DNA of 64,000 nt, from assembly GCA_965116925.1 (NCBI GenBank), contig OZ220744.1:2729136-2793135 (forward strand), in the 5' to 3' direction. Source of the stretch: Candidatus Poribacteria bacterium. GTDB lineage: Bacteria; Poribacteria; WGA-4E; PCPOR2b. Positions 25,577-62,725 of this stretch are shown one piece after another (positions within the stretch are counted from its first letter, which is position 1; each line of letters opens with the position of its first letter). Both the position numbers and the translations under genes were made by a program. The notes beneath the pieces are model-generated. The model was not told the origin of the DNA, did not search any database, and saw only the letters and a program-made list of their open reading frames with translations.

Positions 25577-26506
25577 TTAATGACGCCGGATGCTCGCCGC
25601 AATCTCTTCGGCTGTTCTCGCTGCATCCTGTTTGGCGATCGCTTGGACGACGTAGATCCGATTGGAGTGATGACAGTACCAGAGGTTCACGGCGAAAGTT
25701 TTGCGACGCATAATTTTGTCGATCACCAGCGCGGGACCAAAAGGCACGCGGTCTATGAGACGAGTTTCCTCTCCGATTAACGTTAGCCGTTCTTCTGCAT
25801 CGCCGTTGCTGGATTCAATTGAGAAGCCATATCCACGGATGGCTTTGGCGTATCTCCCTCGAAACCACTCCTCAAGATCTTGTTCCTTGAGCGTAACATC
25901 TGCGACTCCATACCGTTCGATGCTAACTTTTCGACTTCCATCTACGAACGAAAAGAGCAGGTAGCCCGACAACAGTTTATGCTTGTCGAGGCGATACCGC
26001 CGCGGAACTTCTGCATTGAGTTGGTAGGCACTCCAGAGCGTCGCCTGTCCTACCGGGTGATCTTGAACCGACCTAAATATTCGGCTAGTTGTCTCCTTAA
26101 TATTTTCCTTGAGATGTCCCATAACCTGCACGATTGTAATTCGCTTGCAGATATGGCAGTGGAAGATAACGCCGCTCGCCCGAAAATCGCCCTTCCAGTT
26201 GAAGAAAACAACCTCTCTGTCCTCGAAAAACGCCTCATCCTTGATTAGATTGACGTTACGCTGGATGTGCAGGTTTGTATCTTTGCGTTTATAATTTTTG
26301 CGGACGAGCTTGAAATAGTCGTCGAGGACCTTTTGGAGGTCTGGTTTCTTCTGCTTTGATTCAGACCATTTTAACTCAAGGCGCGGCATATCCGCGTCCT
26401 CTAGGCGCAGGTATCCACTTTTATCGTCACCAGATAATCCACTCAATTCCCAATCTGCGGGTAGTTCAAGGGTAATGCCACCCCACCCTAAAGTTGTCCA
26501 TTCCAT
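25577..26506 (-). CDS. Hypothetical 309-aa protein (no recognisable family), first gene of the PqqD/ABC operon
   Basis: Long ORF with codon usage like its neighbours. Tight spacing (17 bp) to the downstream gene. Confidence 0.5.
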   Translation of the reverse strand: MEWTTLGWGGITLELPADWELSGLSGDDKSGYLRLEDADMPRLELKWSESKQKKPDLQKVLDDYFKLVRKNYKRKDTNLHIQRNVNLIKDEAFFEDREVVFFNWKGDFRASGVIFHCHICKRITIVQVMGHLKENIKETTSRIFRSVQDHPVGQATLWSAYQLNAEVPRRYRLDKHKLLSGYLLFSFVDGSRKVSIERYGVADVTLKEQDLEEWFRGRYAKAIRGYGFSIESSNGDAEERLTLIGEETRLIDRVPFGPALVIDKIMRRKTFAVNLWYCHHSNRIYVVQAIAKQDAARTAEEIAASIRRH

Positions 26507-26546
26507 AGTTGGTTCATCGGTACATTAGTTCATTGATTATGAAGTT

Positions 26547-26680
26547 GGCTCATGTTAAGAAAGCGTGCAACAGCAACCGAGTTTTCGTAGGGGTTGGGTC
26601 ACCCAACCCTTACGGCGGGCGGGGAAACCCCGCCCCTACGATTTCGCTTCATATTTTGCACTTTCTTTTTACATGAGCCA
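26547..26680. repeat. MITE-like element family 2, copy c
   Basis: 'ggctcatgttaagaaagcgtgcaa...cgtaggggttgggtcacccaacccttacggcgggcggggaaaccccgcccctacg...tttgcactttctttttacatgagcc'. Confidence 0.8.
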
Positions 26681-30965: not shown

Positions 30966-32963
30966 CTAAAACGGCTTGACAATAACCGCTTTGGAGACTA
31001 GTGCGATTGCAACCGTTCCCATGCCAACAAGCCCGACACCACAGATGAAGCCTGCCGCCAAGACGGGATTATACATGAACCATCGTTTCAGACCAAACTG
31101 TTTGATCATGTAAAACCGACCGATGAGGGCACCCACCACTTTTGGAACCATCATCCCCGGGTCTTGACCGATCCCCCCAACAATGCCGTAGAACCACATA
31201 CTTGGCGCCTTTGCCATCCAGAGCAGCCCGTAAATTGCCACTGAGGAGGTAAAGCCGGCTGACACGTAATCGCCGCGAATGGCTTGTAACATCTGGCTAT
31301 TTCCATCTCGAAGTGAGGTTTTCCAGAGACATTCATCGGTTGCGTAGAGAGGCCACCATGTCTGTGCAAAGGGATACTGTGAGGACGGGATAGGTGCGAT
31401 CTGCCAGATGAAATGCCAGACCACGATTGTCGCAACAATCAAGAGCGGCACCATCAAGGCACGCGCTAGGACGTCGCTGGTGAAAGTTGTGCCGGTCAAT
31501 TCAAGCACACGCCAATGCTGCGTACCCGCTCCGTAATCTTCATCTGGCAGGTGGACAAACCAGATATCAATCTCCTCGTAGCGGCTTAAAATAAACGTTG
31601 CCTGATGGATGTAGGGCAGCACGAAGAGCGGTCGCCCTAACACTCCAAATGTTCGTGCGTTGATATAGGAGTGCAAAGGGGTATACAGAAAGGCAAAGCC
31701 GAGGAGGAAAGAAACGGGAAAGTTCGGGACCATCCGATGCACAATCCATACATACACCACCATGCTGAGACCCCATAAGCCGCCCATGAACCAAATTGGG
31801 AAATCACCACGTCCCGGCGGCGTTTGCAGCGAGCCTCGCGCCCCCGCCTCTTGTTGTTTTTTCCTTCTGAGGCTCAACATGATTGGGATGGACGCTGCCA
31901 AACCGACGGCAGCAAAGCTGAAGGATTTGCCCATGTTGAAACTCAACCAGAAATCGAGGTCATTAAACAGCTTAACGCCACGCATATCCAAGCCCGGACG
32001 CCACTGATGTAGGATCTCCAATGGGTAGAGGATTCGCGGGTTCAGGATAAACTGGGTGAACATCGCTGCAACGAATTCGCTAATAATAAGTGGAAACGGT
32101 AGCACAAACCCCTGTAGCATCATGCCAAAATCTGTCCATAGGGCAAACATCCCCGATGGTGCAAAGCTTTCGATGCTTGGGGTGAAGTCAATAAATGGGA
32201 TTTTCAGAATCTGTATCGGTGTTGACATCATCACGCCTGTGAGCGCAGGAATACCGATATAGAAAAACCCCCAGAACAGTCCCGCCATGGAACCGATTGA
32301 AAAGACACGCCAACGCCATGTTTCGCCCTGACCCGTGGTTTCGGCTAATGCGGTCGCGCCTTGCGCTTGAATCGGTGCCAACGGGTAGGGGAGTCGCTCT
32401 AAATCTGCTGTCAGACGGAACAGAAAATAGCTCGCGCTAATATAGCGAACCTCTGCTAGCAACTTCATGACCAGAAAGATCGCAAGGGGCCAGAACCAAT
32501 CCATATGCAACAGCGAACGCTCTGCAATTGCCATCGCGTCCTTTGCGGGTGCAACCCAATAAGGGACTTTGTCCGCGATTTCATACGACTGTGCCTGCGG
32601 CGTGTTGATAAAGTAGGCGTACCAGACAAACGGATAGGCACGATATTGGATTCCAGAACCGACCGCCATGCCGGTTAGTCCCAGCAAAATGTAAAGTTCT
32701 TGTCTCCTTGCAGTTGTGAAAGACCGGCGCGCCAATTCTGTAAATAGAATGACCGCCACCCAAGGCGCAGCACCTGCGCCCGACTGACCTGCAACTAAGG
32801 TCAGATAGATTGACCCCGGCATCATCAATAGACCGATGAAGAGTGCACCTAGAAAGACTTTCAAGGTTAAGCCGGACTCAAAGGTTCTTAAACCGCCTTC
32901 AACATCATAACGTTGTGCCCAAGCTTGCCACTCTTCTGCTTGCGACACCCTTTCTCTTGCCAA
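30966..32963 (-). CDS. Polytopic membrane protein, paralog 1
   Basis: See 27582-29579. Collinear over the full length. Confidence 0.6.
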   Translation of the reverse strand: MARERVSQAEEWQAWAQRYDVEGGLRTFESGLTLKVFLGALFIGLLMMPGSIYLTLVAGQSGAGAAPWVAVILFTELARRSFTTARRQELYILLGLTGMAVGSGIQYRAYPFVWYAYFINTPQAQSYEIADKVPYWVAPAKDAMAIAERSLLHMDWFWPLAIFLVMKLLAEVRYISASYFLFRLTADLERLPYPLAPIQAQGATALAETTGQGETWRWRVFSIGSMAGLFWGFFYIGIPALTGVMMSTPIQILKIPFIDFTPSIESFAPSGMFALWTDFGMMLQGFVLPFPLIISEFVAAMFTQFILNPRILYPLEILHQWRPGLDMRGVKLFNDLDFWLSFNMGKSFSFAAVGLAASIPIMLSLRRKKQQEAGARGSLQTPPGRGDFPIWFMGGLWGLSMVVYVWIVHRMVPNFPVSFLLGFAFLYTPLHSYINARTFGVLGRPLFVLPYIHQATFILSRYEEIDIWFVHLPDEDYGAGTQHWRVLELTGTTFTSDVLARALMVPLLIVATIVVWHFIWQIAPIPSSQYPFAQTWWPLYATDECLWKTSLRDGNSQMLQAIRGDYVSAGFTSSVAIYGLLWMAKAPSMWFYGIVGGIGQDPGMMVPKVVGALIGRFYMIKQFGLKRWFMYNPVLAAGFICGVGLVGMGTVAIALVSKAVIVKPF

Positions 32964-33205
32964 ATTTATGCTCCTTTCAGGACGCGAAGCGTAAAACGTA
33001 AAACGTGAAACGTGAAGGGAATGGGTAAATACAGGTTTTTAATGAAACACAGTTGTAAGATGTGTTCATGAGCTCAACCCTTCATTGGTATATTGCTTGG
33101 TTACCGATTTCTTAAAATCTTACATAACCACGAATCCACGATAACGAAATAGGGAGATTTGAAGCAATCTTTTCTCACGTTTCACACATCACGTTTCACG
33201 ATCCT

Positions 33206-33392: not shown

Positions 33393-36300
33393 TTAATCCG
33401 CTGGTGCGGGTTGAGCAGCCAGACCGCCAACGCCCGGAGCGTCTTCCGTCTCGCTCTCTTGCCGTCCACGCTCATGGAACTCACCGCGGATATCAGCACT
33501 GAACGTCCGCCAAATTAGTAGCTGTTTTCGGACAAGGTTCAAGAAACGACGGTTGACGCGCTTCCATGAAGCAATCTCCCCGCTCTCACGGTGGACATCG
33601 AGGTGAATCTTATACAACTCTTCCTCTTCTCCGCCGACCGGTGAGGTGACAAGCCGAATGGATTGGCTGACTCCGAGATCGTAGGGGGCGAGCCACACCA
33701 TCATGCTGATGTTGTAGGCTTCTTCCTCTTCCTCTTTCCCTTCCACTACCACAGGCGTTCGACCGAAGGCGACCTGATCCGTGTAGAAATCGCTTGCGGA
33801 TTCGTCGGCGTGTGCTTCAAAGTAATCGCGCATAAAGATATTTAAGCCGAGCGATTCTTCTGCCAACACGGTGAAGGGGAGATCGAAGTGCCACTCGTCG
33901 CCTTCAGGCTCCGGCAGCTGCCATTTCCGTTCGATGTCAGGCACCGCCATGCGACTGGCTTTAATTGCAGGATACAGTGTACTTCCAATCACGACAATCA
34001 TTACAATAATGGTTGCTACCACTGTTGACATTGACGAGTAGTTGAGGGTCAATCCAGCAAGCAAGCCAAAGTTGACAAGGACGGTTGCGACTGCCTGGCC
34101 GAGCAGGTAACCGAGCACAGCACCGACAATCGCATACACACACGCTTCCGCGAGGAACAGGAAGGCGATATGCACGGGAGCGAGTCCGACAGAACTGTAG
34201 ATGCCGATTTCACGGACCCGTTCGTAGACCGCACCGAGCATCGTGTTCAGAACGATCAGCGACGCAATTAAAATTGGTATGAATAGGTTACCCATACCGG
34301 AGAAAGAGGTCATTCCGATGGAACTGTAGAGATAGGTGTCCCGATCTTTTCCAACAAAGAAGTCGAGTGCGATTCGGTTCATCAGCGGTGCCATGATCAG
34401 GTCCAGTTTATCTGCCGCACTGAAGATTGTTGGATCGCCGGGCTGTGCTTCCATGTTGACAGCGACGGAGCGTAACGTCCCGCCCTGATTCATGACTACA
34501 TCATACGGCAGGATAGCCACAGCATCGGGAGGTAGATGAATATATTTCTCCAACTCTCCTTCCATGGCTTGGTTCTGTCCTTGGGCGCCACCGCCTCGCG
34601 CTTCCTGCTGCTGCATCAGTTGGTAGTCAACAGGTGTCAGTTCTTCGCCATCATTATCCTGTAAGTCTTTGAAGCCGATACCGAGAACACCCGTAACGGT
34701 GAAGTCTGCGCCGTATACGGATACAGTCGCTTTGCCCATATCGGCTTCGGTGATGCCGAGCAGATCCGCCATACCTTTGGGGAGGACACAAGCATAGGGC
34801 CATTGTGTGGGCCACTCTGCTTCATCGTCGGGGTGATACCATCGACCATACTGGAGGTAACGGTCAATTCCTGTTACACCGGGTTCATCTTGACTCATCC
34901 CGACCAACATGGTAGCAGAGTAGGTCTTTGGCTGACCGGTGGTAGTATTGACAGGCGGTACAGGATCTTGCAGGTTGGGGGTGCGCTCTAGCTGCACAAA
35001 CGACTGATCGCCGGTGCCCGCGGACTGATACCATGCGCGTGGCGCGACGATGTTATGCACTCGGAGGACGGATTCTTCGCCCAGCTCAATCAACGATCCC
35101 TCCTGACGTAATTGGGCTATGATTGCTTCAACCTCTACGTCAGCCTGCTCTGCCGATTTACCTTGCTGCCCCAGTCGTTTCTTCAGCAGTAACCGTAGAT
35201 CTTTTTCAGGGATTTGTGTTTTCCGCAGATCATTTGTGAGTGAGTTGACAACAGGTTCTTCGAGCGGATTCCAATACTGATCTCGGATAAGCATCCCGGT
35301 GTAGCGCGGCGTTACGGAAGGTAGGTTGGTGCTGTTGGGATGCATAAAGGTACGCACCGATGTAAAGGAGATGACCGTAAAGGTGAGAATAACCAGTGTG
35401 CTACAGGTGAGGATGGTGCGGCCCTTCCGCTTACGCATATTGGAAATACCTAGACTGAAAGCGGCAGCGGAGGCAGACAAGCGTCCCACGTCTGCCTTGT
35501 ACACTTTTGATCCCTCCTGCTTAATTTTTTCCACCTGTTCTTCAAATTTCCGGACGATGATGCTGATCACAATTGCCGTCAACGCAAGGACGACGAACGC
35601 AATCAGGATGATAACCGGCGTCGTGGTAATCTGGAATGCGGGGTGCACCTGCGCCAAGAAGAAAAAGACAACGAGGAAGATCGCAGCTGTCCCCATAATC
35701 TGTTTTTGGACGGTTGGGAAAGCGAATATCAACCGTTCCATGAAGTAGGCGAACGGGATCAGGAGGGCGAGATAGAACATCACACCATTGACTACGTCAT
35801 TGCCGGTTTTCTTCACATCGGGGTAGGCGCGGGATTCGTATCCCCACGCGGCGCGGGCAAGTTTGAGTGCCTGCTGATAGTCTTTTTGGGTGAGGGCAGC
35901 CTCCGCCTGATTTAGATGTTCGTTGGCGAATTGGTGGAGCTGATCAAGCCGATCGCTGCTGATGCCGAACCGTTTATACAGACTCGCCCGGTTCTCATCG
36001 AGCCACCACATATCGCGGACGACAACGTATGGGGTTACGCGAATGCTACCGTTCTCGCGGACAACAAACCCTTCTCCGGTATAGAGTGTCGGGTTCTTCG
36101 TTCCGCTTTTACTCGCCTTGATCAATAGTAACCGTTTGCCGATTTGTCCATACGCCATGCCGACCTTGATACGACTGTTAGGCTCCGAATAAACGAGCGC
36201 GATAGGCTCAGTTGCCGAGATACCTTCCTGCTGCCACGGCTTCGATACGCCATACTTTTCTGGTGGGCTATCGCTTGCGGCATCAAAAACTTCCAGTTCA

Positions 36301-39300
36301 CGAAGCGTTCGTAGGTATCGCTGATCCACAAGATCGTAGATAGTGGTAGACACACAGGGGAAAACCACGATACGGCATCCACGACGGTGGGTGTTAATCG
36401 GTATCAGGTTCGGCAAGAGTTTCGCGCCGAAGTTACCGAGATCCGGTGCGTAGACAATATCACCGGAATCCGGGTGGAGGATATAAGCTTCCACCTCTTG
36501 CGTTCCTTTGAGGCGGATGGTGGCACGCCCCTCCATCGCAAGTCCTGCAACCTCAAAGTTTCCTTTATTGTCGCCCATTGCAATGAGATCGCCTCGCACC
36601 CCCATCATGGTTTTGTGCTGATTCCGCAAAGCGAGAATAGGATACTCCACCGGTTTGTTTGGTAGCGCGCTCTCACGGGCATCATACTCGACGACATCAC
36701 CAAACAGGTTGCAGTAGAAGTTCCCCACCCGTGCTGCGGTGGGCATCTTCGGATCGCGCATCGCTTGGATAAGAATAGCGGCAAGGGTTTTCGCCTGTTT
36801 ATGCAAGGCACCATCGTGGCTCAAATCCATTCGGTCAATTGTGTCGAGCGGGGTATCGGTCAACACGCGTGCATCGTCGATGGTGGCAAAAGCAATTCCG
36901 GTAAAGCCGGTCAGGGTTGCCACTTCGCTATCAAAGGCTATCTTACCAGGTATGTAGGTCTTCCAGATCTTACCGCCACTAGCAGAGATTGCGTTGACAA
37001 AGTTGGTCTCACCACCAAACCCGGCGATATCAATGAGTGCCTTAATATCATCGACTTCCTCTTGTGTAAATTCGGACGGGTCCTCGTGGCGCAGGGCAAG
37101 CATCGCATCCATTCGATTGAGCAGGCGCACCTTATTCTTCCGGTTCTTCCGCGCCTCCCGGATATCGTTTCGGATGAATCGTTCGACTTCCTTACGGATA
37201 TAGTCCATATCCTTGAGCATATCCTCGGAAGGTTCGCCCTGATTTTTCATCTGCTCAAACTGCATCTTCATCAATCGAGACACTCCGGATAGCCCGACCA
37301 ACGTTGCGTAATGCTCAGTAACTAAGCTTTCAAGGCTCTTGCCCTCGATGGCTTTTTTCGGATCGATGCCAGCTGCAACTGTCCATTGAGTATTCATCAC
37401 CGCTTGGCGGATCTGATCGTCGGTGAAGGTCCATAGTTTCTGGATACGTTCACCGAAATCGGCACCCTCTGCGTATTCGGCAAGTTTATTTCCGATGGAA
37501 GCGAACTCGCGGCGGAGGACAAATTCGGGCTGCTGGTCATAGAACCACCCTTTGTTGAATACGCCAAACTGGTCGTTCTGGCTGGAGAGGTCAATGGCGA
37601 TAAAGAGAGAGGTGTAGTAACGATTAAAGATGTCTTGCAGTGCAATCGCTTGTTCGATGGAACGTATCTTCCGTGTGTATTCTGACTCGCTGATACGTGC
37701 AATTTTCTCGACCCGTTTTTGTAGATTGCGAAATCGAGCGTTCCGCATCGTGAGCAGGTTATCACGGAGGAGAATCTTGGTCTCCTCGTCCGGATCGCGG
37801 TCAAGACGGTCAAGGATGTTCAGCAGGTTCTGGAGTTCGACAATATCGTTTTTGGCTCGCCGCTTCACCATCTCTAGTAGATGCTGTTCTTCAAGCTGAC
37901 CGAAGATCTGCTCTCGGACAGCCATCGCTCGGTCTGCTGCATCTTCAGGGAGATAGTGGCGGAGGACGAGTGCCTCTTCGGCGAGGTAGGGACGGTTCAG
38001 CGACGCATGGCGTTCAAGGAGGGATTCAATTCGATAGCGTTCAAGGCGAGCGTTCCGCATCGCGGTTTCGAGGATACTCTGTTTATCTCTGGTCAGGTCA
38101 TCAACCAAAATTTGGTCTAATTCTCGTGAGGTTGCTGTTCCCGTTGTCGGGTCCATCATCTCCAACTTCTGGTGGAGTTGAGTCTGAACAATCTCAAACT
38201 GCTTGAGGGTTGCCTCATTGAGGAAGAGTTCTAGCTCATCCGCAAAGCCTGCCGGGAGGTGATCCGGTTTAGAACTTAACTGGGTGATAGCGTTTTTGAT
38301 ACTATCCTCTGCATCGCTGCTTGCGGGAATATTGGCGAGCGTTCGTTCAAGGAGTTGCCGTTCTTCTTCGATGTAGGCTTCCAGAGATTTTTCAGCGCGG
38401 TTGACAACCCTACGAGCTGACTTGATTCGTTCCAAACCCTTAAAGTCAAGATGGCGGTCTAACAACTTCTCTTGGGCATACTGGAGGGTGAATTTCCGTG
38501 GATCTTCAAATTCCCAGTCCTGCAAATTGTCCGAGAGTCGCTGAACATCTACCTCCAGATACGACGGTAGGTCACTCGGTACTGGTAGATAATAACGTCC
38601 CCCCTCCCGTTCCTTCGGTACGAGATAGCTGCTGTCTGGCGTTTGTACATATTTCCCTTCAATCCGTTCTGCCCTTAAATCCGCTTCCAATTTATCTATT
38701 GCCCAAACGTCCAACCGAGCCATCGGTAGGGCAATCTGTTCAATCAATTCACGTTGGGTGTCACGGCATTCAGCTAATGCTTGTGTGCGCAGTTTTAGGG
38801 TACGGTTAAGCATTGAACGCAGGAATTGAGTGGTCTGCAGCGCGTCTTTCTTGAACTTCGCGAGGTTGACCTCTAGTCGTGATTTTTCCTCTTCGGTGAA
38901 TCCTTGCTTCTCCCGTTTCTTGGTTGTTTCGAGTTTCTTCTTCTCTTTCTCTTTTGCGTCACGCTGGGCGTTACGCAACGAGTCAATGTTGCCTTTGGTT
39001 GTCTGTAGATCGGAGAGGGTTGTTGCTAGGGAGGCGACATCTGCTTTGAGTTCGTGGACATCGTGGAAGAAGTTAGGGGGTAAATCTACCAGCACATTTC
39101 GGTCGATCGATAGCAGTAGCTTACGTCCCAGTTCCTCAAACTCAAAGAGGTCGGTACTTAAACCGCGACGCAGCCCGCGCATTGTCGGTGTGCCGGGAGA
39201 ATCCGCTTCTCGTCCGACGATATCTTGACCAATCCCCTCCATAAATGCGCGCATACCCCCCAGTCCTTGGAAGTGGGCATCTGTTGCGACAAACAGAAGG

Positions 39301-40814
39301 GAACGCCCCGGTCGAAATTCCTCTTGGCTGAAGATACGAGCAAGCTCCAACAGAGTGGCAATGCCGCCGGTGGGATCGGCACCGGGTGCCATTGCGGGAA
39401 CGACAGACATTGAGTCGTAATAGCCGGTGATAACAACCAATTCGTCCTTTAGGGTTGGGTCGCCACCTTCAAGGAAACCACGAATGTTCTGCCCAATACG
39501 CTGTTCCCAAGTAATGGTACTAGTGAGACGTGCGTAAATTTTCTGAGGAGACGATTCCGATTGTGCTTCCCCTTCGCCAAGCATAGCCAAGAGTTCGTCG
39601 GCGTCCTCTTTAGCAATCCAGAAGCGGGGGATGTTGGCAGGGACCGTCAGGAATTTGTTCTCAGCCTCACCGCGGATAGTTGTCTCCGGCTCGATGAAGA
39701 GGACAGCTTTCGCGCCAAGCATGGCGGCGTTAATCCATTTGGTACTAGAGTTGAAGTCAACCAGTACAACGCTGCCTTGGGGGATAAAGATGCTGGATTC
39801 ATAGGCGGCAACAAACTCGCCTTCTTCGTCAATTTGCCCATTGTTGTTGTTATCAATACCATCAGTTGCATCGCCGGGGATTTCGTCTACGAAGGCGTCA
39901 CCATCGTTGTCGATGCCGTCGGTATCCCATTGCAAGATCTCAGTTAGTGGGGGAATCTCACCGTATTCGTCGATCTGTCCGTCTTCATTGTTGTCAATAC
40001 CATCTTGCGTCTTTTGGAGATGGCCGTTAAGCACATCGTCAGTGATGCTGCCGACACCGATACGGAAACGGTGGGCGAGGTCTTCCAAAGTATCGCCAGG
40101 TTCAACTTTGTGCCAGAAACCGCCGATATCTTTGCCGTTGAACGAGGAGAGTTCCCCACTTCCCCCATAAAAGAGGGGCGCGGTCAGTCCACCGGTGGGA
40201 ATAAAGAGCGAGTTGCCTTCGACCAGCACTAACTCGCCCGGTTCGTCGATTTCACCATCATCATCGTTATCGCTGCCATCGGTTGCTTGGTCACGGAGGT
40301 ATTGGTTATGCGGGTCAGCCAAGATAGCTTGTGGGTCAACTTGATAGGATTTAGCAATTCCGTCAAAGGTTTCGCCTTGAACGACTACATGCGAGACACC
40401 GTTGGGGAGGAAGGAGGTGCGAACAAGGTTGGGCCAGATTGACCAGATTCGGTAAGTCTTCAGAAGCGTTTGATCTTCGGAAAGAATTTCTACCTTTCCA
40501 TCACCGTGATCTATTGGAACAGAAACGGGAAACTCACGGCTCTCAACGTTTTGTAAGCCGATCTCGACAAATTGGTCAAAGATGTACTTGCTGCCTGAAG
40601 CGGCTTCATCGTAACCGGTGACGCGGGTGGGCAGATTGGAGAGTCGAGCGATGTCTTTTCGCATTCGGCCGATATCGACTTTGTCACTGATTTTGACTGC
40701 AACCTCCGAAAGCCCGACAGACAGCTGTTCGTCAACAGCGAAACCGCCGTGTGGAGATAGTAGCGCGAGAATGCAGAGCCATAGACTGATGTAATAATAT
40801 CTCTTGATGATCAT
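33393..40814 (-). CDS. Giant (about 2470 aa) secreted/membrane multidomain protein: signal peptide, M28-family Zn peptidase with Ca-binding Asp-rich repeats and LysM-like motifs, about 1000-aa coiled-coil, then 3 TM and a FtsX/MacB-type permease module with a large extracytoplasmic domain and a C-terminal cytoplasmic tail
   Basis: M28: 'ITGYYDSMSVVPAMAPGADPTGGIATLLELARIF...LLFVATDAHFQGLGG'. Repeats 'DGIDNNEDGQIDEYGE', 'DTDGIDNDGDAFVDEIPGDATDGIDNNNNGQIDEEGE'. FtsX TM1 'FSLGISNMRKRKGRTILTCSTLVILTFTVIS'. FtsX core 'GNLFIPILIASLIVLNTMLGAVYERVREIGIYSSVGLAPVHIAFLFLAEACVYAIVGAVLGYLLG'. Start set at Met40814 (GGAGG RBS, signal peptide IIKRYYYISLWLCILALLSPHGGFA) rather than the track's 40898. Confidence 0.8.
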   Translation of the reverse strand: MIIKRYYYISLWLCILALLSPHGGFAVDEQLSVGLSEVAVKISDKVDIGRMRKDIARLSNLPTRVTGYDEAASGSKYIFDQFVEIGLQNVESREFPVSVPIDHGDGKVEILSEDQTLLKTYRIWSIWPNLVRTSFLPNGVSHVVVQGETFDGIAKSYQVDPQAILADPHNQYLRDQATDGSDNDDDGEIDEPGELVLVEGNSLFIPTGGLTAPLFYGGSGELSSFNGKDIGGFWHKVEPGDTLEDLAHRFRIGVGSITDDVLNGHLQKTQDGIDNNEDGQIDEYGEIPPLTEILQWDTDGIDNDGDAFVDEIPGDATDGIDNNNNGQIDEEGEFVAAYESSIFIPQGSVVLVDFNSSTKWINAAMLGAKAVLFIEPETTIRGEAENKFLTVPANIPRFWIAKEDADELLAMLGEGEAQSESSPQKIYARLTSTITWEQRIGQNIRGFLEGGDPTLKDELVVITGYYDSMSVVPAMAPGADPTGGIATLLELARIFSQEEFRPGRSLLFVATDAHFQGLGGMRAFMEGIGQDIVGREADSPGTPTMRGLRRGLSTDLFEFEELGRKLLLSIDRNVLVDLPPNFFHDVHELKADVASLATTLSDLQTTKGNIDSLRNAQRDAKEKEKKKLETTKKREKQGFTEEEKSRLEVNLAKFKKDALQTTQFLRSMLNRTLKLRTQALAECRDTQRELIEQIALPMARLDVWAIDKLEADLRAERIEGKYVQTPDSSYLVPKEREGGRYYLPVPSDLPSYLEVDVQRLSDNLQDWEFEDPRKFTLQYAQEKLLDRHLDFKGLERIKSARRVVNRAEKSLEAYIEEERQLLERTLANIPASSDAEDSIKNAITQLSSKPDHLPAGFADELELFLNEATLKQFEIVQTQLHQKLEMMDPTTGTATSRELDQILVDDLTRDKQSILETAMRNARLERYRIESLLERHASLNRPYLAEEALVLRHYLPEDAADRAMAVREQIFGQLEEQHLLEMVKRRAKNDIVELQNLLNILDRLDRDPDEETKILLRDNLLTMRNARFRNLQKRVEKIARISESEYTRKIRSIEQAIALQDIFNRYYTSLFIAIDLSSQNDQFGVFNKGWFYDQQPEFVLRREFASIGNKLAEYAEGADFGERIQKLWTFTDDQIRQAVMNTQWTVAAGIDPKKAIEGKSLESLVTEHYATLVGLSGVSRLMKMQFEQMKNQGEPSEDMLKDMDYIRKEVERFIRNDIREARKNRKNKVRLLNRMDAMLALRHEDPSEFTQEEVDDIKALIDIAGFGGETNFVNAISASGGKIWKTYIPGKIAFDSEVATLTGFTGIAFATIDDARVLTDTPLDTIDRMDLSHDGALHKQAKTLAAILIQAMRDPKMPTAARVGNFYCNLFGDVVEYDARESALPNKPVEYPILALRNQHKTMMGVRGDLIAMGDNKGNFEVAGLAMEGRATIRLKGTQEVEAYILHPDSGDIVYAPDLGNFGAKLLPNLIPINTHRRGCRIVVFPCVSTTIYDLVDQRYLRTLRELEVFDAASDSPPEKYGVSKPWQQEGISATEPIALVYSEPNSRIKVGMAYGQIGKRLLLIKASKSGTKNPTLYTGEGFVVRENGSIRVTPYVVVRDMWWLDENRASLYKRFGISSDRLDQLHQFANEHLNQAEAALTQKDYQQALKLARAAWGYESRAYPDVKKTGNDVVNGVMFYLALLIPFAYFMERLIFAFPTVQKQIMGTAAIFLVVFFFLAQVHPAFQITTTPVIILIAFVVLALTAIVISIIVRKFEEQVEKIKQEGSKVYKADVGRLSASAAAFSLGISNMRKRKGRTILTCSTLVILTFTVISFTSVRTFMHPNSTNLPSVTPRYTGMLIRDQYWNPLEEPVVNSLTNDLRKTQIPEKDLRLLLKKRLGQQGKSAEQADVEVEAIIAQLRQEGSLIELGEESVLRVHNIVAPRAWYQSAGTGDQSFVQLERTPNLQDPVPPVNTTTGQPKTYSATMLVGMSQDEPGVTGIDRYLQYGRWYHPDDEAEWPTQWPYACVLPKGMADLLGITEADMGKATVSVYGADFTVTGVLGIGFKDLQDNDGEELTPVDYQLMQQQEARGGGAQGQNQAMEGELEKYIHLPPDAVAILPYDVVMNQGGTLRSVAVNMEAQPGDPTIFSAADKLDLIMAPLMNRIALDFFVGKDRDTYLYSSIGMTSFSGMGNLFIPILIASLIVLNTMLGAVYERVREIGIYSSVGLAPVHIAFLFLAEACVYAIVGAVLGYLLGQAVATVLVNFGLLAGLTLNYSSMSTVVATIIVMIVVIGSTLYPAIKASRMAVPDIERKWQLPEPEGDEWHFDLPFTVLAEESLGLNIFMRDYFEAHADESASDFYTDQVAFGRTPVVVEGKEEEEEAYNISMMVWLAPYDLGVSQSIRLVTSPVGGEEEELYKIHLDVHRESGEIASWKRVNRRFLNLVRKQLLIWRTFSADIRGEFHERGRQESETEDAPGVGGLAAQPAPAD

Positions 40815-41043
40815 GATAATTCCTCCGATTTTTTTAATAGGCTGACCGGCGCATAGTATGCTATTGTGTTTAGATCTGTCAGATTCTATCATAGTCACAA
40901 AGTCTTGTCAAGATGCAAAACGGATCTAATTCACAAAAACATAAAACGTGATTGGTTCATTTATCATGTTTTAGATTTCATTCATGGAATGCCGATAAAA
41001 TCGGGGATGCAGGGCGTAACTTCTATCAATTTCGTTTTATACC

Positions 41044-41530: not shown

Positions 41531-42418
41531 ATGAACCAGAGATCGTCCCAAAAACATCAGATTGCAGAACAGGTGTCCTCCAAACCCGCTCTAGAACCTG
41601 CCGAGGGTGCGCGACAGTTGTTGCGTGAACTAAATGTTCAGGACATCCCGATTCAACCGCGAAATATTGCAGAACAGTTGCAAATCGTCGTCTGGGAACG
41701 GGAGATGGAAAGCCAGTACGATGGCTGCTTAATGCGGGTTGGCGATACGTGGGGCATTCTGCTCAACAATCTGATTCAATCAGAGTCCCGAAAGAACTTT
41801 ACAATCGCTCACGAACTGGGGCATTACTACTTGGATGGGGGACAAACTGAGAGGCAAAATTTCGCTACAGATGCAAAGAACAGAGCGGCGGAATTTGCCC
41901 CTCAGCACCGTTGTCAGCGCGAAGATTTGCGTGGATTTGATTCGCACCAATTGGAAGAGCAACGTGCCAATCAGTTCGCAGTTGAGCTGCTGATGCCCTC
42001 TCCCATTTTTCGAGCGGACGCTACCGATCTGCCTAAAATCGGGTTGACGGCGATTGATACCCTCACTGCCAAATATTCTACCTCTTTGACCAGCACGGCT
42101 ATTCGCTACACACGCTTGAGTCCGCATGTTTGTGCGATTGTGCTGTCTGAGCGGGGGCAGATTAAATACTTTGCTTATTCAGATGGCTTTCGTCAGAATA
42201 GTGATTGCTATCTCGCGAAAAATAAGCCCCTCCATCCCGACTCGGTCGCAGCCCTGCTTGACAAAGGTAAATCGAAAGAGGTGAAAGAACACCAGCGGAA
42301 AGTTCCGTTGTCCCATTGGTGTTCGACGCAATCGGATCAACCCCTCGTCGAGCAATCCCGCCGATTGCCCCGCATGAATCAGGTGCTCTCGTTTCTTTGG
42401 TTGCCGGACGGGGCGTGA
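41531..42418 (+). CDS. ImmA/IrrE-family (DUF955) zinc metallopeptidase
   Basis: 'FTIAHELGHYYLD' HEXXH motif plus a downstream Glu. Paired with the upstream XRE HTH, as in ImmR/ImmA and CapH/CapP modules. Confidence 0.8.
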   Translation: MNQRSSQKHQIAEQVSSKPALEPAEGARQLLRELNVQDIPIQPRNIAEQLQIVVWEREMESQYDGCLMRVGDTWGILLNNLIQSESRKNFTIAHELGHYYLDGGQTERQNFATDAKNRAAEFAPQHRCQREDLRGFDSHQLEEQRANQFAVELLMPSPIFRADATDLPKIGLTAIDTLTAKYSTSLTSTAIRYTRLSPHVCAIVLSERGQIKYFAYSDGFRQNSDCYLAKNKPLHPDSVAALLDKGKSKEVKEHQRKVPLSHWCSTQSDQPLVEQSRRLPRMNQVLSFLWLPDGA

Positions 42419-42439
42419 AACGTGAATAATCGCCTGCCT

Positions 42440-42463: not shown

Positions 42464-42577
42464 ATCGACTCAGTTAGTTCATTAGTTCATTGATGATAGA
42501 GCCCATCAGAAAACTTAACGGGGCACAAAAAAGGGGTGCATCCGAAGATACACCCCTAGTCTATGAAGCATTTGCTC

Positions 42578-52424: not shown

Positions 52425-52751
52425 ATTGACCCGCTTAGTTCATTGGTTCACTAGTTCATTGAACTGATGAACGATATACATTGCGTGCTTCATACAGCAG
52501 TTACGGCATACGGAATATACTTGCCATATTATTAGTAATAATTCCTATTACTGATAGATAGAATTATACCAAAAAGGAATTGGATAGGTCAAGTTAAAAA
52601 TGTTTTTTTTATTATGAAAAGGATATTGGGTTCCATGGACATTCTGTTGTCGAGATATGAATCTTGACCTACAGGATACTTGCTCGTTTTGGGCGTGGTG
52701 GGAGGGTCGGGCAAGATGCCCGACCTATGTGTTCTCAAATGTCAACACGCC

Positions 52752-53816: not shown

Positions 53817-53877
53817 ATTTGTCCTTTCTGATGTTGGTTCATTGGTTCATTGATCTATTGGTGCCTCATTGCTATGC

Positions 53878-55283: not shown

Positions 55284-55392
55284 TTTCTCCTTTAGTTCAT
55301 GCTAAGAAATGGTGTAGTGGAATTGGCGATTCCTATTCTGACTGCGCCAATGAACTGATGTACAAATGATTTTTCACGTTTCACGCATCACG

Positions 55393-56124
55393 TCACCGAG
55401 TGTAACGGGCAAAGTAGAACGTCTTGAGCGGCGCCTCCGTATCGTTGATGAGGGTATGCCCTGGGTTTGACGGTGCAACAGAGACCGCATCGCCCGGAAC
55501 TTGCCGATAGACGTTCTGGCTCACCACGTGGATGCCGTTCCCCTCTAACATATACCACACCTCATCCATATCGTCAGCGTGTCCGTGGGTATCGGGGGTC
55601 TGCATCGCATCGATCGTTACCATCAGGACGGAATGCAGCTTCGCGAGTCCATCAGCCTCTCCGAAAATCGGGTGGACGAGATGGGTCCAATGTCCCTGAC
55701 TAAGAGGATTCTTCCGATAATTTCTGATCAGGACATCTTCGCGGGGTGTTCCTTCAGCATCGGCGAGGGTTTCCTCCAATATCAGAAGTTCTAAGGGCGT
55801 GGTATTTGCCTCGTTGTTTAGGACATGCGTCGTCCCCGGCGGTACGATAATGCCGTCGCCTTCGCGGACCTCCTGCTTGAGGTCACCGCCTTCAAAAATT
55901 GCCTCCCCATCGACGATGTAGAAAATCAGTTGCCGATCGTCGAAAGATGTCGGTACCGAGGCGATTCTCGACTCAAGGTAGCACCGGGAGAAGCTATCAA
56001 TATAGTTGAGAGTTGCTCCCGGTTTGTGGGGATCGTCGGGATCTTTCTTGGAGAAGATTTCTCGGCGGATGATGTTGCCGTGTGTGAGACTTGAGGGGGA
56101 TTGTAACCAACTTCTCATTTCCAT
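55393..56124 (-). CDS. Bicupin protein, tandem paralog 1
   Basis: Two cupin 'G..H.H...E..Y...G' motifs. About 95% nucleotide identity to the adjacent 56207-56941 copy. Confidence 0.65.
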   Translation of the reverse strand: MEMRSWLQSPSSLTHGNIIRREIFSKKDPDDPHKPGATLNYIDSFSRCYLESRIASVPTSFDDRQLIFYIVDGEAIFEGGDLKQEVREGDGIIVPPGTTHVLNNEANTTPLELLILEETLADAEGTPREDVLIRNYRKNPLSQGHWTHLVHPIFGEADGLAKLHSVLMVTIDAMQTPDTHGHADDMDEVWYMLEGNGIHVVSQNVYRQVPGDAVSVAPSNPGHTLINDTEAPLKTFYFARYTR

Positions 56125-56206: not shown

Positions 56207-56941
56207 TCAGGGGTCTGCACTGCGTCGAAAGTAGAACGTCTTGAGCGGCACCTCCGTATCGTTGATGAGGGTATGTCCTGGATTTGACGGTGCAACAGAG
56301 ACCGCATCGCCCGGAACTTGCCGGTAGACATTCTGGCTTACCACGTGGATGCCGTTGCCTTCGAGCATATACCACACCTCATCCATATCGTCGGCATGTC
56401 CATGGGTATCAGCGGTCTGCATTGCGTCGATTGTTACCATTAGGACAAAGTGCAGCTTCGCGAGTCCATCAGTCTCTCCGAAGATGGAGTGGACGAGATG
56501 GGTCCAATGCCCTTGAGTCAGGTGTTGTTCTCGGTAGTTTCTGATAAGTACATCTTCGCGGGGTGCTCCTGGAGCATCGGCGAGGGTTTCTTCCAATATC
56601 AGAAATTCTAAGGGCGTGGTATTTGCCTCGTTGTTTAGAACATGCGTCGTCCCTGGCGGCACGATGATGCCGTCGCCTTCGCGGACCTCCTGCTTGACGT
56701 CGCCGCCCTCGAAAATGGCTTCCCCGTCAACGATGTAGAAAATCAGTTGCCGATCGTCGAAAGACGTTGGTACTGATGCGATTCGCGACTCAAGGTAGCA
56801 CCGAGAGAAGCTATCAATAGAGTTAAGGATTGCTCCCGGTTTGTGGGGATCATCGGGGTCTTTCTTGGAGAAGATTTCCCGTCTGATGATATTGCCGTGT
56901 GTGAGACTTGAGGGGGATTGCAACCAGCTTCTCATTTCCAT
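56207..56941 (-). CDS. Bicupin protein, tandem paralog 2
   Basis: Near-identical to 55393-56124. Start at MEMRSW. Confidence 0.65.
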   Translation of the reverse strand: MEMRSWLQSPSSLTHGNIIRREIFSKKDPDDPHKPGAILNSIDSFSRCYLESRIASVPTSFDDRQLIFYIVDGEAIFEGGDVKQEVREGDGIIVPPGTTHVLNNEANTTPLEFLILEETLADAPGAPREDVLIRNYREQHLTQGHWTHLVHSIFGETDGLAKLHFVLMVTIDAMQTADTHGHADDMDEVWYMLEGNGIHVVSQNVYRQVPGDAVSVAPSNPGHTLINDTEVPLKTFYFRRSADP

Positions 56942-57220
56942 TTTTCGTTCTCTCCCATTTTTTTCAGACGCAATAATTTTATTCAAACTGACCGCAGAGG
57001 CACAGAGAACGCCGAGAAATACAGAGAAGGATTAAAAAAGTAGTGTTAGACATAACCCTTTCTCCGAAAGAGATTTAATGAAAATTGAAGGTGGTCATAT
57101 TATTTCTTTTTTTGCCTTTCTCTGTGCCCTCTGCGTCTCTGCGGTGAATCTATCCAGCAAAATTATAGCACGATTTCTGAAAAAATGAGAGTCGAAAATG
57201 GATTAGCGGTCACAAGAAAA

Positions 57221-58786: not shown

Positions 58787-58865
58787 GGTGTTATGGCTCC
58801 GTTCGTTAGGGGTTCATTTGTTCATTCACTTTTCACGCATCAGGTTTTGGGTTTGAACCTTACAT

Positions 58866-60083: not shown

Positions 60084-60199
60084 CTATTTGTCCTTTGCTG
60101 ATTTTCCTTTTGTCACGTGTGATTTAGGGCTCATTAGTTCATTGGTGGATCGGTTCATTTATTTTTTTATCCATCACGCATCACGTTTCACGTTTCAGT

Positions 60200-60715
60200 C
60201 TAAGCTGTTTCGGGGAAAAGATCCCTTTTAGGGGCACTGTCCCGTTTGTAGACCATGATAGCGCGCACGAGATCGATGACCACCGCCCCGTCCTGATTAA
60301 TGCCCCGCGAGCAGACCCTGACAATACCCGCTTCGGGATAGGAGCTCGACTCGCGCTTCGATAGCACCTCAGTTTCGCAGTAGAGGGTATCTCCAATAAA
60401 GACGGGGTTTGGCAGCTTGACCGCCTCCCAGCCCAGATTTGCCATTGCGTTCTCACTGACATCTGGAACGCTCATGCCGGTAATCAGTGCCAGCGTGAAG
60501 GTGCTATTGACGAGGATTTGCCCCCACTTTGTCTGTTGGGCGTAGTGCAGATCGAAGTGGAGCGGGTTGGTGTTATGGGTAAGTTGGGTGAACAGTGCGT
60601 TGTCTGCTTCCGTGACGGTATGTCCAAACCTGCTACGGTAGACATCCCCGACTTCAAAATCTTCGTAGAAACGCCCCTCCCAACCCGTTTGAATTTTATC
60701 TTTGGATCTCGGCAT
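60200..60715 (-). CDS. MaoC-like (R)-specific enoyl-CoA hydratase/dehydratase
   Basis: Hot-dog fold: 'FTQLTHNTNPLHFD', 'GQILVNSTF'. Confidence 0.8.
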   Translation of the reverse strand: MPRSKDKIQTGWEGRFYEDFEVGDVYRSRFGHTVTEADNALFTQLTHNTNPLHFDLHYAQQTKWGQILVNSTFTLALITGMSVPDVSENAMANLGWEAVKLPNPVFIGDTLYCETEVLSKRESSSYPEAGIVRVCSRGINQDGAVVIDLVRAIMVYKRDSAPKRDLFPETA

Positions 60716-60936
60716 CTATCCCTCCTGTTATATTTGGTTCATTGGTACAATAGTTCATTGGTTCATTTCGTTTTCGCGTTTCACGTCCCGATTTCATCGA
60801 GGATCCCGCTACGCGGAGCATCACGTTTCACGCATCACGTTTCAGATGTTACCTATAACTCTACAACGGATGTGGGGAATAATCAAGCCTTTTTGCCCTT
60901 GCGTCACCTTTGTGTATGTGCTATAATTCACCCACT

Positions 60937-61401
60937 ATGAAAGCTGAGAAGTCTGTTGCGACTACGGGTCCAATTGCTAGGAATAAGAAAGCGCGGTTCG
61001 ATTATCATTTGATGGATCGTTTCGAGGCAGGGATTGCCCTCCAAGGAACGGAGGTCAAGGCGATTCGTGCGGGTCGGATGAATTTGACCGATAGCTACGC
61101 TCGCGTTGACGATGGGGAGGTCTTTCTGATTGATGCCCATATCGGTCCTTACGAGCAAGGCAGTCGCGAGAATCATGAGCCGAAGCGGAAGCGGAAACTC
61201 CTGTTGAACCGTCGGGAGATTAAGCGGATCGAAGGGAAAACTCGACCGACCGGCATGACGATTGTGCCGACGAAGGCTTATTTCAGCAAGGGTAGAGTAA
61301 AGGTTGAAATCGCAGTGGCGCGTGGTAAGCACGACTACGATAAGCGCGAAGATATGCGGCGGGAAGTAGATCAACGGGCAATCCAATCGTATATGAGGTA
61401 G
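60937..61401 (+). CDS. smpB: SsrA-binding protein
   Basis: 'IARNKKARFDYHL...GIALQGTEVKAIRAGRMNL..SY' canonical SmpB. Start at MKAEK. Confidence 0.95.
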   Translation: MKAEKSVATTGPIARNKKARFDYHLMDRFEAGIALQGTEVKAIRAGRMNLTDSYARVDDGEVFLIDAHIGPYEQGSRENHEPKRKRKLLLNRREIKRIEGKTRPTGMTIVPTKAYFSKGRVKVEIAVARGKHDYDKREDMRREVDQRAIQSYMR

Positions 61402-61898: not shown

Positions 61899-61928
61899 AA
61901 AAATCGGGATAGTTACACACTTACATAC

Positions 61929-62518
61929 GGGGGTGAAAAGGTTTCGACGAGAGTAGATGATGTAAAGGTTGCATGCCGAGGTCTCCGCAGGCCTCGTTAA
62001 ACAGGCGGAAACAATTTAATTGCCGATGAAGAATTGGCTCTAGCTGCTTAATAAAAGCGGCTCGTCCGGCTAATTTGCGGTCCCGTCGAGTTAGCCCGAC
62101 GTCAACAAACGGGCTGTGCGCCTTACTTGTTCTCAAGGGGCATGGCGCGAGATTTAACTTGAGATAGTCCGCAGCGAATCCGGCATAAGGGAGTCCTATG
62201 GACGAAACACCAAAGCTTATGCTAAGCATGTAGTAGCCTTTATTGAAATGCTCTCGGACGCGGGTTCGATCAGTCTGGTCGACTTGGAGGGCAACCTCCT
62301 CGATTAAACTTGGCTTACATCGGTGAAACCTAAGAGATGGCGACATCTTATGGCAACACCGAGGGATTGTATGGTCCTGTAGAGACTGTAATGATAGGAG
62401 ATAATGTCAACGACAAATCTAGATCTCCTATAACACGCTAGGCTCCACCATTTTGGGTGGATGAAGATATAGTCCACGCCTCTGGGAAACCGGGGGGTCA
62501 CGTGTCCCGCCACCTCCA
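61929..62518 (+). ncRNA. ssrA: tmRNA (ssrA) interrupted by a group I intron in the T-loop. Exon 1 is 61929-62270 and exon 2 is 62505-62518. The tag reading frame spans 62022-62054
   Basis: 5' 'GGGGGUGAAAAGGUUUCGACG...GGUUGCAUGCCGAGG..CCUCG' (D-loop analog and PK1) closely parallels E. coli ssrA. Tag ORF GCC GAU GAA GAA UUG GCU CUA GCU GCU UAA UAA gives ...ADEELALAA. 3' 'GGACGCGGGUUCGAU | intron | UCCCGCCACCUCCA' restores a canonical T-arm and a 7-bp acceptor stem with a G3-U70 wobble. A T-run follows. Confidence 0.85.
62271..62504 (+). other. Group I intron (234 nt) inserted in the tmRNA T-loop
   Basis: 5' exon ends in U paired to an internal guide 'GUCGA' (P1: UCGAU/GUCGA with a U-G wobble at the splice site). 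The intron ends in G. Core-like elements 'GUAGAGACUGUAAUG' and 'GAAGAUAUAGUCC' resemble the P7/P9.0 region (AAGAUAUAGUC) of Tetrahymena-type group I introns. Confidence 0.7.
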
Positions 62519-62725
62519 TCTTTTTTAAGATTTTGAAACATTGGTTCAAGTGTAGTTACGGCATACGGAGTATGCCTACTACTTTGGTTCATTGGTTCAT
62601 TTTGTTTTCACGTTTCACGCATCACGTTTCATCTCCCATGAATGGCAATATCCTTGTAACCTCTGTTAGGCATAATTGAGTTAGTCATTTTGAACCCTAA
62701 CAGTGTTACAAGGAGGAACTGAACC

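Follow-up and report, generated by a model that had tools for sequence, protein, structure and literature searches.

The 64-kb stretch of contig OZ220744.1 of Candidatus Poribacteria bacterium analysed here (the window; 53 genes, 42 of them on the minus strand) raises the question of why the same two short motifs recur between its genes, and what they might do there. A preliminary description had taken them for a promoter-proximal pair, composed of a tandem GTTCATT heptad and a repeat with GCAT separators, standing in front of most genes in no constant orientation and serving possibly as a binding array for an abundant regulator or as a promoter-targeting miniature element. Our analysis, in which related loci and contigs bear L-numbers, points instead to two tandem-repeat families located at gene boundaries, one of which, an octamer, would be an RNA-level element lying 5' of the ribosome-binding site (RBS), with the number of its units tuning initiation. 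We regard this reading as quite possible, if somewhat short of probable.

That the motifs are non-random, repeat-like and tied to gene starts, as had been claimed, was borne out. Allowing up to 2 mismatches, GTTCATTGGTTCATT was found 19 times in the window, against 0.26 matches expected from shuffles, and the 23-mer CACGTTTCACGCATCACGTTTCA was found 6 times at up to 3 mismatches, against 0 expected. Both are mostly intergenic: spacers make up 14.8% of the window and hold 27 of the 28 copies of the core AATGAAC (p~1e-21) and 19 of the 26 copies of CGTGAAA (p~4e-11). Each of the nine sites listed previously as examples has at least one of the motifs. Their presence in front of most genes was, however, overstated, as an array occurs in 14 of the 40 window spacers of at least 30 nt, and about 6-8 of the 53 genes have a sense octamer pair no farther than 70 nt from the start.

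The units were defined by Tandem Repeats Finder and register-aware scans. Read in the sense of the gene, the octamer family is (AATGAACN)n, with a period of 8 bp and variant units AATGTAC and AGTGAAC; thus the GTTCATT motif is indeed tandem, but not a heptad. The second family is (CGTGAAA)n, with a period of 7 bp and variant units CGTGATG, CGTGAAG and CGTAAAA, and the supposed GCAT separator is just part of the CGTGATG unit. In both families 2-4 or more units are joined head-to-tail; they are non-palindromic 7-8-mers without capacity to form G-quadruplexes. Nor is the pairing of the motifs obligatory, since octamer and heptamer arrays are found together in either relative orientation, or each alone, and do not co-occur in other lineages. 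The strands differ in the signals they carry. The sense octamer unit, written as RNA (AAUGAACC)n, contains ATG and TGA (a mini open reading frame, ORF, ATG AAC NAA TGA). The CGTGAAA strand offers a TGA stop in every frame as well as GTG, and the TTTCACG strand has neither starts nor stops. The octamer and the TTTCACG-sense heptamer are both G-poor.

A tandem unit of 5-11 nt, an intergenic excess and whole-unit copy changes between relatives are the marks of long-unit simple sequence repeats (LSSR), and all three were found here. The assignment of both motifs to intergenic repeats of this class, evolving by unit slippage, can be regarded as secure. Copy changes were followed in relatives graded by CoA-transferase identity (L122, 95%; L123, 93%; L124 and L125, 90%; L126, 84%); the window enzyme is 95% identical to that of OZ242315.1 (Candidatus Poribacteria). 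After the CoA-transferase gene there are two AATGAAC units in the window and three in L122; the MaoC leader of L122 has one extra CGTGATG, and its cupin>ceramidase spacer has two antisense octamer units where the window has one. Whole arrays come and go as well. The Fur array is missing in L124, and L122 and L123 lack the Iso_dh octamer array at the orthologous site, having antisense heptamers instead. Judged from these comparisons, the arrays appear to turn over frequently, their units changing in the manner of slippage. In the 21 kb of L126 that were scanned neither window family was found; this locus has its own heptamer arrays GATTGCG/CAATCCG (ATTGCGG/GATTGCG) at 1430-1461, 20410-20441 and 20452-20483, an inverted pair included, which indicates that the choice of unit is lineage-specific.

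Placement was counted in the window together with seven related loci of the clade. Of 25 classifiable octamer arrays, 19 lie upstream of the start of the next gene and follow its sense; with inclusion of an edge case, the L122 array 574-588 (-), which is also sense and stands 25 nt before a minus-strand gene, the total becomes about 20 of 27. About half of the octamer arrays end 11-25 nt before the start codon, and when arrays were compared with random positions in their own spacers, 6 of 9 were within 25 nt, where 2.5 were expected (p=0.005). Heptamer arrays of the clade show no preference for orientation (10 versus 8) and lie farther from the start than the octamer, or directly after stop codons. 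The inconstant orientation reported earlier therefore holds for the heptamer and not for the octamer. No common function was apparent among the genes downstream of the arrays.

It should be noted that 18 of the 19 octamer matches fall on the plus strand of the window. This excess arises because most window genes are on the minus strand. Replication-strand bias was considered as its cause and rejected, as the bias follows gene orientation: in L010 the array and the genes are both on the plus strand, and the arrays of L122, found on both strands, agree in strand with their downstream genes (unlike the minus-strand array 574-588, the others are on the plus strand before plus-strand genes). GC skew in the window was uninformative in this respect.

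The position of the arrays relative to promoters bears on the level at which they could act. Promoter-like blocks conserved among relatives were recognized before MaoC (TTGATT-N17-TAGAGT), before the divergent SmpB gene (TTGCGT-N17-TATAAT) and before the cupin gene (TGcTATAAT). Those of MaoC and SmpB are conserved in five genomes, and the sequence from the -10 to the Shine-Dalgarno sequence (SD) varies as a fast-changing mosaic; for MaoC this is seen among the window, L122, L123, L124 and L125. The Fur array lies ~100 nt downstream of a strong promoter-like site, TTGACC-N18-TATAAT (52592-52563; 11/12 matches plus TG). Arrays downstream of conserved promoter-like blocks would therefore be in the mRNA leader, and we infer that the arrays are transcribed, within 5' leaders or intercistronic spacers. 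SmpB itself appears to be nearly leaderless: its conserved block (TG before the -10; 60899-60939, +) ends 9 nt before the ATG at 60937.

This arrangement has consequences for the earlier suggestion that an abundant nucleoid-associated protein or a global transcription regulator recognizes the arrays in double-stranded DNA; such a protein would coat or repress the promoter-proximal region. Such a function would agree with the many sites per genome, with the direct-repeat architecture, which is known from several regulator families, and with the position near gene starts. Moreover, GTGAAAC is the conserved half of parS, and ParB reportedly binds isolated half-parS heptamers in Pseudomonas (bioRxiv 10.1101/280743, PMC10419367). 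However, the arrays of MaoC and Fur are found past the promoter-like blocks and reach as far as the SD, the 7- and 8-bp periods differ from the helical repeat, so that successive sites would face different sides of the helix, close relatives differ freely in the number of units and in having an array at all, and the octamer is mRNA-strand-specific in two independent data sets (the clade and the metagenomes described below). Helix-phased sites at or upstream of a promoter, as in operators and iterons, are not what the arrays provide. We thus find a DNA-binding array poorly supported and very unlikely. Arrays of half-parS sites for ParB were rejected as the main explanation: there is no full parS in the window (0 matches to the 16-bp palindrome TGTTNCACGTGAAACA at up to 2 mismatches); in the survey outlined below the matches listed have 124 different heptamer units, of which CGTGAAA is just one; other array-rich lineages and the octamer loci listed there lack it, and the TTTCACG|CGTGAAA junction that would create parS is the avoided polarity (1 versus 43 among these matches); L126 uses other units.

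Table 1. Repeat arrays and the MaoC promoter-like block in the window (positions in the window; leaders and spacers named after adjoining genes)
Feature	Position	Strand	Remarks
Octamer array, MaoC leader, AATGAACcAATGAACtattgtaccAATGAAC	60737-60767	-	ends 21 nt before ATG at 60715, directly 5' of SD GGAGGG
Heptamer array, MaoC leader (TGAAA CGTGATG CGTGAAA CGTGATG)	60819-60844	-	starts ~14 nt past conserved promoter-like -10
Short heptamer array (CGTGAAA CGCGAAA), between the two MaoC-leader arrays	60772-60785	-	
MaoC promoter-like block TTGATT-N17-TAGAGT	60858-60886	-	conserved in window, L122, L123, L124, L125; putative promoter
Octamer array, MaoC>CoA-transferase spacer, AATGAACcgatccaccAATGAACtAATGAGC	60129-60159	-	45 nt before CoA-transferase ATG at 60083
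Heptamer array (TGAAA CGTGAAA CGTGATG CGTGATG)	60172-60197	-	begins 2 nt past MaoC stop codon
Octamer array, AATGAACaAATGAAC	58812-58826	-	25 nt before GHL10 start at 58786; 3-4 units at L122 site
Octamer array, between tmRNA 3' exon and pspA	62587-62601	-	antisense to both flanking genes
Heptamer array, CACGTTTCACGCATCACGTTTCA in pspA sense	62606-62631	-	~95 nt before pspA start at 62726
Octamer array, Iso_dh leader	53837-53851	-	20 nt before start at 53816
Octamer array, Fur leader, AATGAACtAGTGAACcAATGAAC	52438-52460	-	13 nt before Fur start at 52424
Heptamer array, cupin>ceramidase spacer	55372-55397	-	followed by one antisense octamer unit (55349-55355)
Octamer array, four units, AATGTACcAATGAACtAATGTACcAATGAAC	25213-25243	-	11 nt before PqqD-domain gene start at 25201; no SD
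Heptamer array, junction of genes 25251-25559 and 25577-26506	25551-25579	-	
Octamer array, AATGAACtAATGTACcGATGAAC	26512-26534	-	immediately before start of 309-aa gene
Octamer array, spacer of genes 22796-23791 (+) and 23956-24819 (-)	23818-23832	-	points toward stop codon
Octamer array, upstream of discoidin-domain gene	20434-20448	-	187 nt upstream of start at 20246
Heptamer array (CGTAAAA CGTGAAA CGTAAAA), TTTTACGTTTCACGTTTTACG in gene sense	20265-20285	+	ends 18 nt before ATG at 20246
Octamer array	10844-10858	-	28 nt past stop of gene 10886-11962, 101 nt before 92-aa ORF start at 10742
Heptamer array, inverted relative to neighbouring octamer array	10809-10836	+	
Heptamer array, TTTCACG/TTTTACG in gene sense	32982-33017	+	~20-25 nt before 665-aa paralog start at 32963
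Heptamer array	33173-33200	-	with 32982-33017 makes CGTGAAA...(155 nt)...TTTCACG inverted pair
Octamer array, convergent (3'/3') spacer	42477-42491	-	stands before no gene start; accompanied by a short heptamer array (42414-42427)

The sites are listed in Table 1. A single octamer unit (20320-20326) also occurs near the discoidin-domain gene, and the gene previously labelled TDH-like encodes an Iso_dh family protein. The example given for pspA does contain arrays (62587-62631), but they lie between the tmRNA gene and pspA, and the octamer is antisense to pspA; conservation of this octamer array extends to L122, L123 and L124, and a 32-nt hairpin module (62555-62586) directly adjoins it.

How could an octamer array in a leader act? 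A/U-rich unstructured elements located just 5' of the SD enhance initiation via ribosomal protein S1. By analogy, the octamer would constitute an A-rich unstructured RNA segment immediately 5' of the RBS, on which the 30S subunit (ribosomal protein S1) or another single-strand RNA-binding protein could land or stand by, and initiation of translation would be tuned by the number of octamer units. The heptamer would provide neighbouring spacers or hairpin arms, supplying TGA stops in three frames after genes in the CGTGAAA orientation and remaining free of starts and stops before genes in the TTTCACG orientation; the difference between its strands fits the orientation in which it is met after stops and before starts. 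Folding predictions are consistent with the part assigned to the octamer, with predicted single-strandedness of 0.64 in the arrays versus 0.48 in the rest of the leader (p=0.005; 13 leaders, orthologs among them). An SD-like GGAG/AGGA usually follows the octamer array (MaoC, CoA-transferase, GHL10, Iso_dh); Fur, PqqD and the 309-aa gene lack it. To our knowledge, E. coli 16S rRNA offers no convincing site complementary to AAUGAAC. A role of the octamer at the RNA level, suggested by position and strand, is the likeliest of the readings, if somewhat short of probable.

Several observations weigh against this proposal. Octamer arrays that are antisense or situated in 3'/3' spacers occur at 42477, 23818, 62587 and 55349. 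Most of the array-bearing poribacterial genes still have an SD, thus the array is not required as its replacement. Higher predicted single-strandedness would be expected of any direct repeat that is not self-complementary, and a sense unit containing ATG and TGA could be equally compatible with a neutral or an inhibitory effect. Some orthologous sites have lost their arrays and show nothing obvious in their place (Iso_dh and Fur leaders in L124/L123), which speaks against strong selection locus by locus. Finally, the location in leaders depends on conserved promoter-like blocks at few loci: a consensus promoter scan of the window gave 9 sites versus 12.6 expected, only the Fur site being strong, which is not above chance, so promoter positions rest mainly on conservation.

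Some of these facts would be accounted for if slippage on units of 7-8 nt, together with inter-array recombination, gave rise to the arrays as a neutral or selfish by-product, their biases reflecting what is tolerated at a given place. The fast gain and loss of units, presence or absence between close relatives, the lack of shared function downstream and the lineage-specific units (GATTGCG/CAATCCG in L126 and, among the matches listed below, 124 heptamer units in 120 loci) would all be natural consequences, and the over-representation of heptamer units throughout bacteria has been ascribed to slippage (Mrazek 2007, as relayed in PMC4679880 and PMC4692102). The heptamer would fit as well, if stop-rich or start-free strands are what certain places tolerate: CGTGAAA with its TGA in three frames often provides the stop of the upstream gene and TTTCACG is devoid of starts and stops. 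Nevertheless, slippage can only expand an existing seed, and leaves the same unit at hundreds of gene boundaries and in different phyla to be explained. The favoured orientation of the octamer places ATG and TGA just before real starts, which is the opposite of the least harmful choice. Moreover, arrays persist at several orthologous leaders of relatives with 90-95% identity while the surrounding leader sequence has been replaced. In our opinion neutrality is the chief rival, though rather unlikely.

Outside of the clade, the heptamer was searched in one genome per species with the pattern TGAAACGTG-N5-TGAAACGTG, and at least 120 stretches were matched, while by our own estimate chance alone would give ~17 for a pattern with 18 specified bases. 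The figures that follow refer to the matches listed. Chloroflexota dominate, and Desulfococcaceae, Verrucomicrobiota, Nitrospirota, NC10, Acidobacteriota and Bacteroidota, among others, are also represented. Short tandem arrays in these loci have mostly period 7 (327, versus 32 with period 6 and 80 with period 8), with 124 distinct heptamer units in the 120 loci; heptamer arrays are therefore general in these genomes, CGTGAAA being merely the unit selected by the search. Near start codons, at 1-28 nt, the heptamer reads TTTCACG in the sense of the gene (45 versus 19, p=0.0016), and after genes the CGTGAAA orientation often provides a TGA stop. Inverted pairs in L002-L121 have almost exclusively one polarity, CGTGAAA...loop...TTTCACG (43, versus 1 of the opposite). 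Both polarities would give equivalent hairpins, and the orientation preferences of the single flanks fall short of a 43:1 asymmetry.

The octamer was searched in metagenomes as three exact units. Among the matches listed, to which the numbers given here pertain, ~40% were (GAAT/GAAC)n microsatellites with N=G, probably eukaryotic, and these were excluded from the statistics. For the 76 bacterial-type arrays, the start of a long ORF within 120 nt was found on the sense side only in 29 cases and on the antisense side only in 11 (p=0.006), and half of the sense distances did not exceed 24 nt; in 9 of 10 cases our choice of start equalled that of independently called proteins. Contig L218, with 11 octamer units, clusters at 90% identity or above with proteins of Mucilaginibacter (Bacteroidota). 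In Bacteroidota-like contigs the octamer arrays end 2-10 nt before the ATG and no SD is present. The CGTGAAA family was absent from these octamer-selected loci, which makes the pairing of both motifs particular to the poribacterial clade.

A separate observation concerns non-poribacterial contigs (L232, L167, L160, L221, L246 and others) in which the ATG of the long ORF is in phase with the array, at a distance of 2 or 10 nt, the start codon belonging to the last, often degenerate, octamer unit. Arrays may thus arise by duplication of the start-codon region, or may donate start codons.

A bolder extension of the proposed octamer function can be formulated. The array (AAUGAACN)n could be a sequence-specific cross-phylum leader signal, shared by Poribacteria and Bacteroidota and read by a conserved component of translation or by a mobile RNA-binding factor, and the 43:1 hairpins could be the footprint of a strand-specific generator or mobiliser of repeats, the two together forming a layer of post-transcriptional control. 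If this were true, the layer would be widespread and undescribed, and gene boundaries of many phyla would owe their identical 7-8 nt arrays to the generator. We consider this speculation improbable.

Hairpins and G-poor RNA may also bring to mind transcription termination or mRNA stability, with the arrays acting as C-over-G sites for Rho loading or as REP-like protective or terminator hairpins. The octamer and the TTTCACG-sense heptamer are predicted to be unstructured, arrays are present also just past stop codons and in 3'/3' spacers, and inverted heptamer pairs would fold into long hairpins. On the other hand, such pairs are rare in the window, terminator-like sites are not enriched there (13 versus 14 expected), and the tight spacing to the SD and the start codon is more naturally tied to initiation. 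This possibility seems to us extremely unlikely.

Another problem is whether the arrays are, or belong to, mobile DNA. One long mobile element holding both motifs was rejected, as the repeat search of the window revealed no family longer than ~40 nt that would cover them, the largest composite repeat being of about that length. Together with the unrelated flanks and the variable relative order and orientation of octamer and heptamer arrays, this indicates that the arrays are not parts of one longer transposable element. An Rfam search of the window returned only the tmRNA (plus its intron), and no family over the arrays. They might still be miniature mobile elements or ends of these, similar to miniature inverted-repeat transposable elements (MITE), REPIN or small dispersed repeats, that insert into leaders and spacers. 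This would explain presence/absence polymorphism at orthologous sites, and a fixed polarity of inverted heptamer pairs in other phyla (43 versus 1 among the matches listed) is what an element with defined ends would leave. Three further features point in the same direction: a hairpin module of 32 nt beside or inside octamer arrays in four genomes, a 980-aa gene inserted in L122 between octamer arrays at both junctions, and an IS605 OrfB/TnpB gene near the arrays in L122. However, neither terminal inverted repeats nor target duplications, fixed length or conserved flanks were found for the arrays in the window, and whole-unit steps within arrays between relatives are typical of slippage. The idea of a promoter-targeting miniature element is thus unsupported for the arrays themselves, and we judge this origin, too, to be very unlikely.

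Small hairpin modules and MITE-like insertions do share spacers with the arrays. The ~32-nt module (aaagtagtaggcaYACtccgtRTgccgtaacc) stands directly beside AATGAACc units at 62555-62586 and ~52495-52525 of the window and in L123, L124 and L109; in the MaoC leader of L122 (~9150-9180) it splits an octamer array whose window counterpart is continuous. The module may thus be a tiny element, mobile or copy-pasted, for which the arrays would serve as a site. A MITE-like insertion in the GHL10>cupin leader (window 56987-57220, L123 13100-13351; absent at L122 16282-16397) has arms composed of another heptamer (GCAGAGA/CGCAGAG ... CTCTGCG), which would form a long hairpin. The 980-aa gene of L122, located between the CoA-transferase gene and GHL10 (11219-14715), encodes LRR/dockerin domains; at the corresponding site (58787-58865) the window has a single array. 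Arrays may be recombination or insertion points for gene cassettes.

As to other features of the window, the plus strand carries SmpB (60937-61401), a 151-aa ORF, the tmRNA gene and pspA, and two minus-strand ORFs in the SmpB-to-pspA stretch are spurious, according to gene calls at related loci and Rfam. Caution is advisable in annotation, as array-bearing spacers yield spurious ORFs and mis-stranded calls. The tmRNA gene (61928-62518, +), missed in the window by ARAGORN, is split in the T-loop by a group I intron. Its 5' exon ends with ...GGGTTCGAT at 62270, the intron (~62271-62504) matches the full-length RF00028 model with 37 bits (E=8e-8, below gathering), and the 3' exon TCCCGCCACCTCCA (62505-62518) restores a consensus T-arm and acceptor stem with G3.U. 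The split gene, with its intron, is conserved in three relatives (L122 7396-7955, L123 7580-8140, L124 7442-7999); an intron in tmRNA was reportedly encountered before, in Clostridium botulinum. The first genes of the window (1-1800) contain ~126-nt (42-aa) repeats (families D1, D3 and D9). There are two tandem pairs of paralogs, coding for 665-aa proteins (27582-29579 and 30966-32963, ~80% DNA identity) and for cupins (55393-56124 and 56207-56986, 89% identity), and an ORF of 2501 aa at 33393-40898.

The kind of repeat found here has been described already; what is new are two units with explicit, statistically supported placement rules. Neither the octamer nor CGTGAAA units as described tandem repeats, nor published heptamer repeats of these units in Chloroflexi, Poribacteria or Bacteroidetes, were found in the searchable literature, whose coverage leaves out most subscription journals. 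Repetitive extragenic palindromic (REP) sequences, BIME and REPIN of proteobacteria are likewise abundant short extragenic repeats that build mosaic spacers, but REPs are imperfect palindromes of 20-40 nt mobilised by RAYT transposases, and our arrays are non-palindromic direct repeats of 7-8 nt. REP-like palindromes are also present in the window, namely families D12/D17 (CGTAGGGGCGGGGTYTCCCCGCCC / GGGTTGGGGRACCCAACCCC; 5131-5190, 13150-13205, 14586-14641, 16828-16862 and 26583-26617) and D13 (GTCGAGATATGAATCTCGACCTACA; 2335, 13225, 27494, 29739 and 52648). They share spacers with the arrays but are distinct from both tandem-repeat families.

Among tandem repeats, the G-rich heptamers GGGAATC / GGGGAYT of Xanthomonas and Nostoc (Rehm et al. 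2015, PMC4692102) similarly form intergenic arrays, sometimes as inverted pairs able to produce stem-loops. They were studied as G-quadruplex formers, which the units described here cannot be, and no rule of sense orientation close to starts was given for them. In many bacterial genomes, no simple repeats are as strongly over-represented as short tandem repeats of 7 nt. LSSR with units of 5-11 nt (Mrazek et al. 2007) and the short tandemly repeated repetitive (STRR) heptamers of Calothrix PCC 7601 (cited in PMC4692102 and PMC4679880) resemble our repeats in the dominance of heptamers, intergenic excess in scattered lineages, lineage-specific units and instability of copy number attributed to slippage. 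As cited there, these surveys give abundance, without rules of gene-boundary placement and strand such as were found here.

The closest described system is that of the TAACTGA heptamer repeats, known from marine Beggiatoaceae and also from some Cyanobacteria and Bacteroidetes, for which a post-transcriptional or translational role was proposed and is untried experimentally (MacGregor 2015, PMC4679880). As in our case, these are short direct repeats (2-6 copies per set), often split by variant units, nearly all intergenic and mostly in forward orientation just upstream of starts of genes with mixed functions, and the same unit recurs in distant phyla with no known route of transfer (PMC4679880). 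Their forward-toward-start rule fits the octamer (19 of 25 in the clade; 29 versus 11 among the metagenome matches listed) and not the poribacterial heptamer (10 versus 8). This best-described case, however, sits in uncultivable giant sulfur bacteria, whereas octamer arrays in a contig clustering with the cultured Mucilaginibacter make translation tuning and spread testable by ordinary genetics. The systems differ in the sequence of the units (AATGAACN and CGTGAAA), in the 8-nt period of one of our families, and in the presence of a second, co-resident heptamer family, located farther out and devoid of orientation bias in this genome. TAACTGA arrays overlap the position of the RBS, with the SD mostly absent (PMC4679880), whereas the poribacterial octamer ends 11-25 nt upstream of the start, 5' of an SD that is usually present. 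To what was known of such repeats the present analysis adds placement rules: the octamer in sense orientation just 5' of the RBS, the heptamer as CGTGAAA after stops and as TTTCACG before starts, and hairpins almost exclusively of one polarity.

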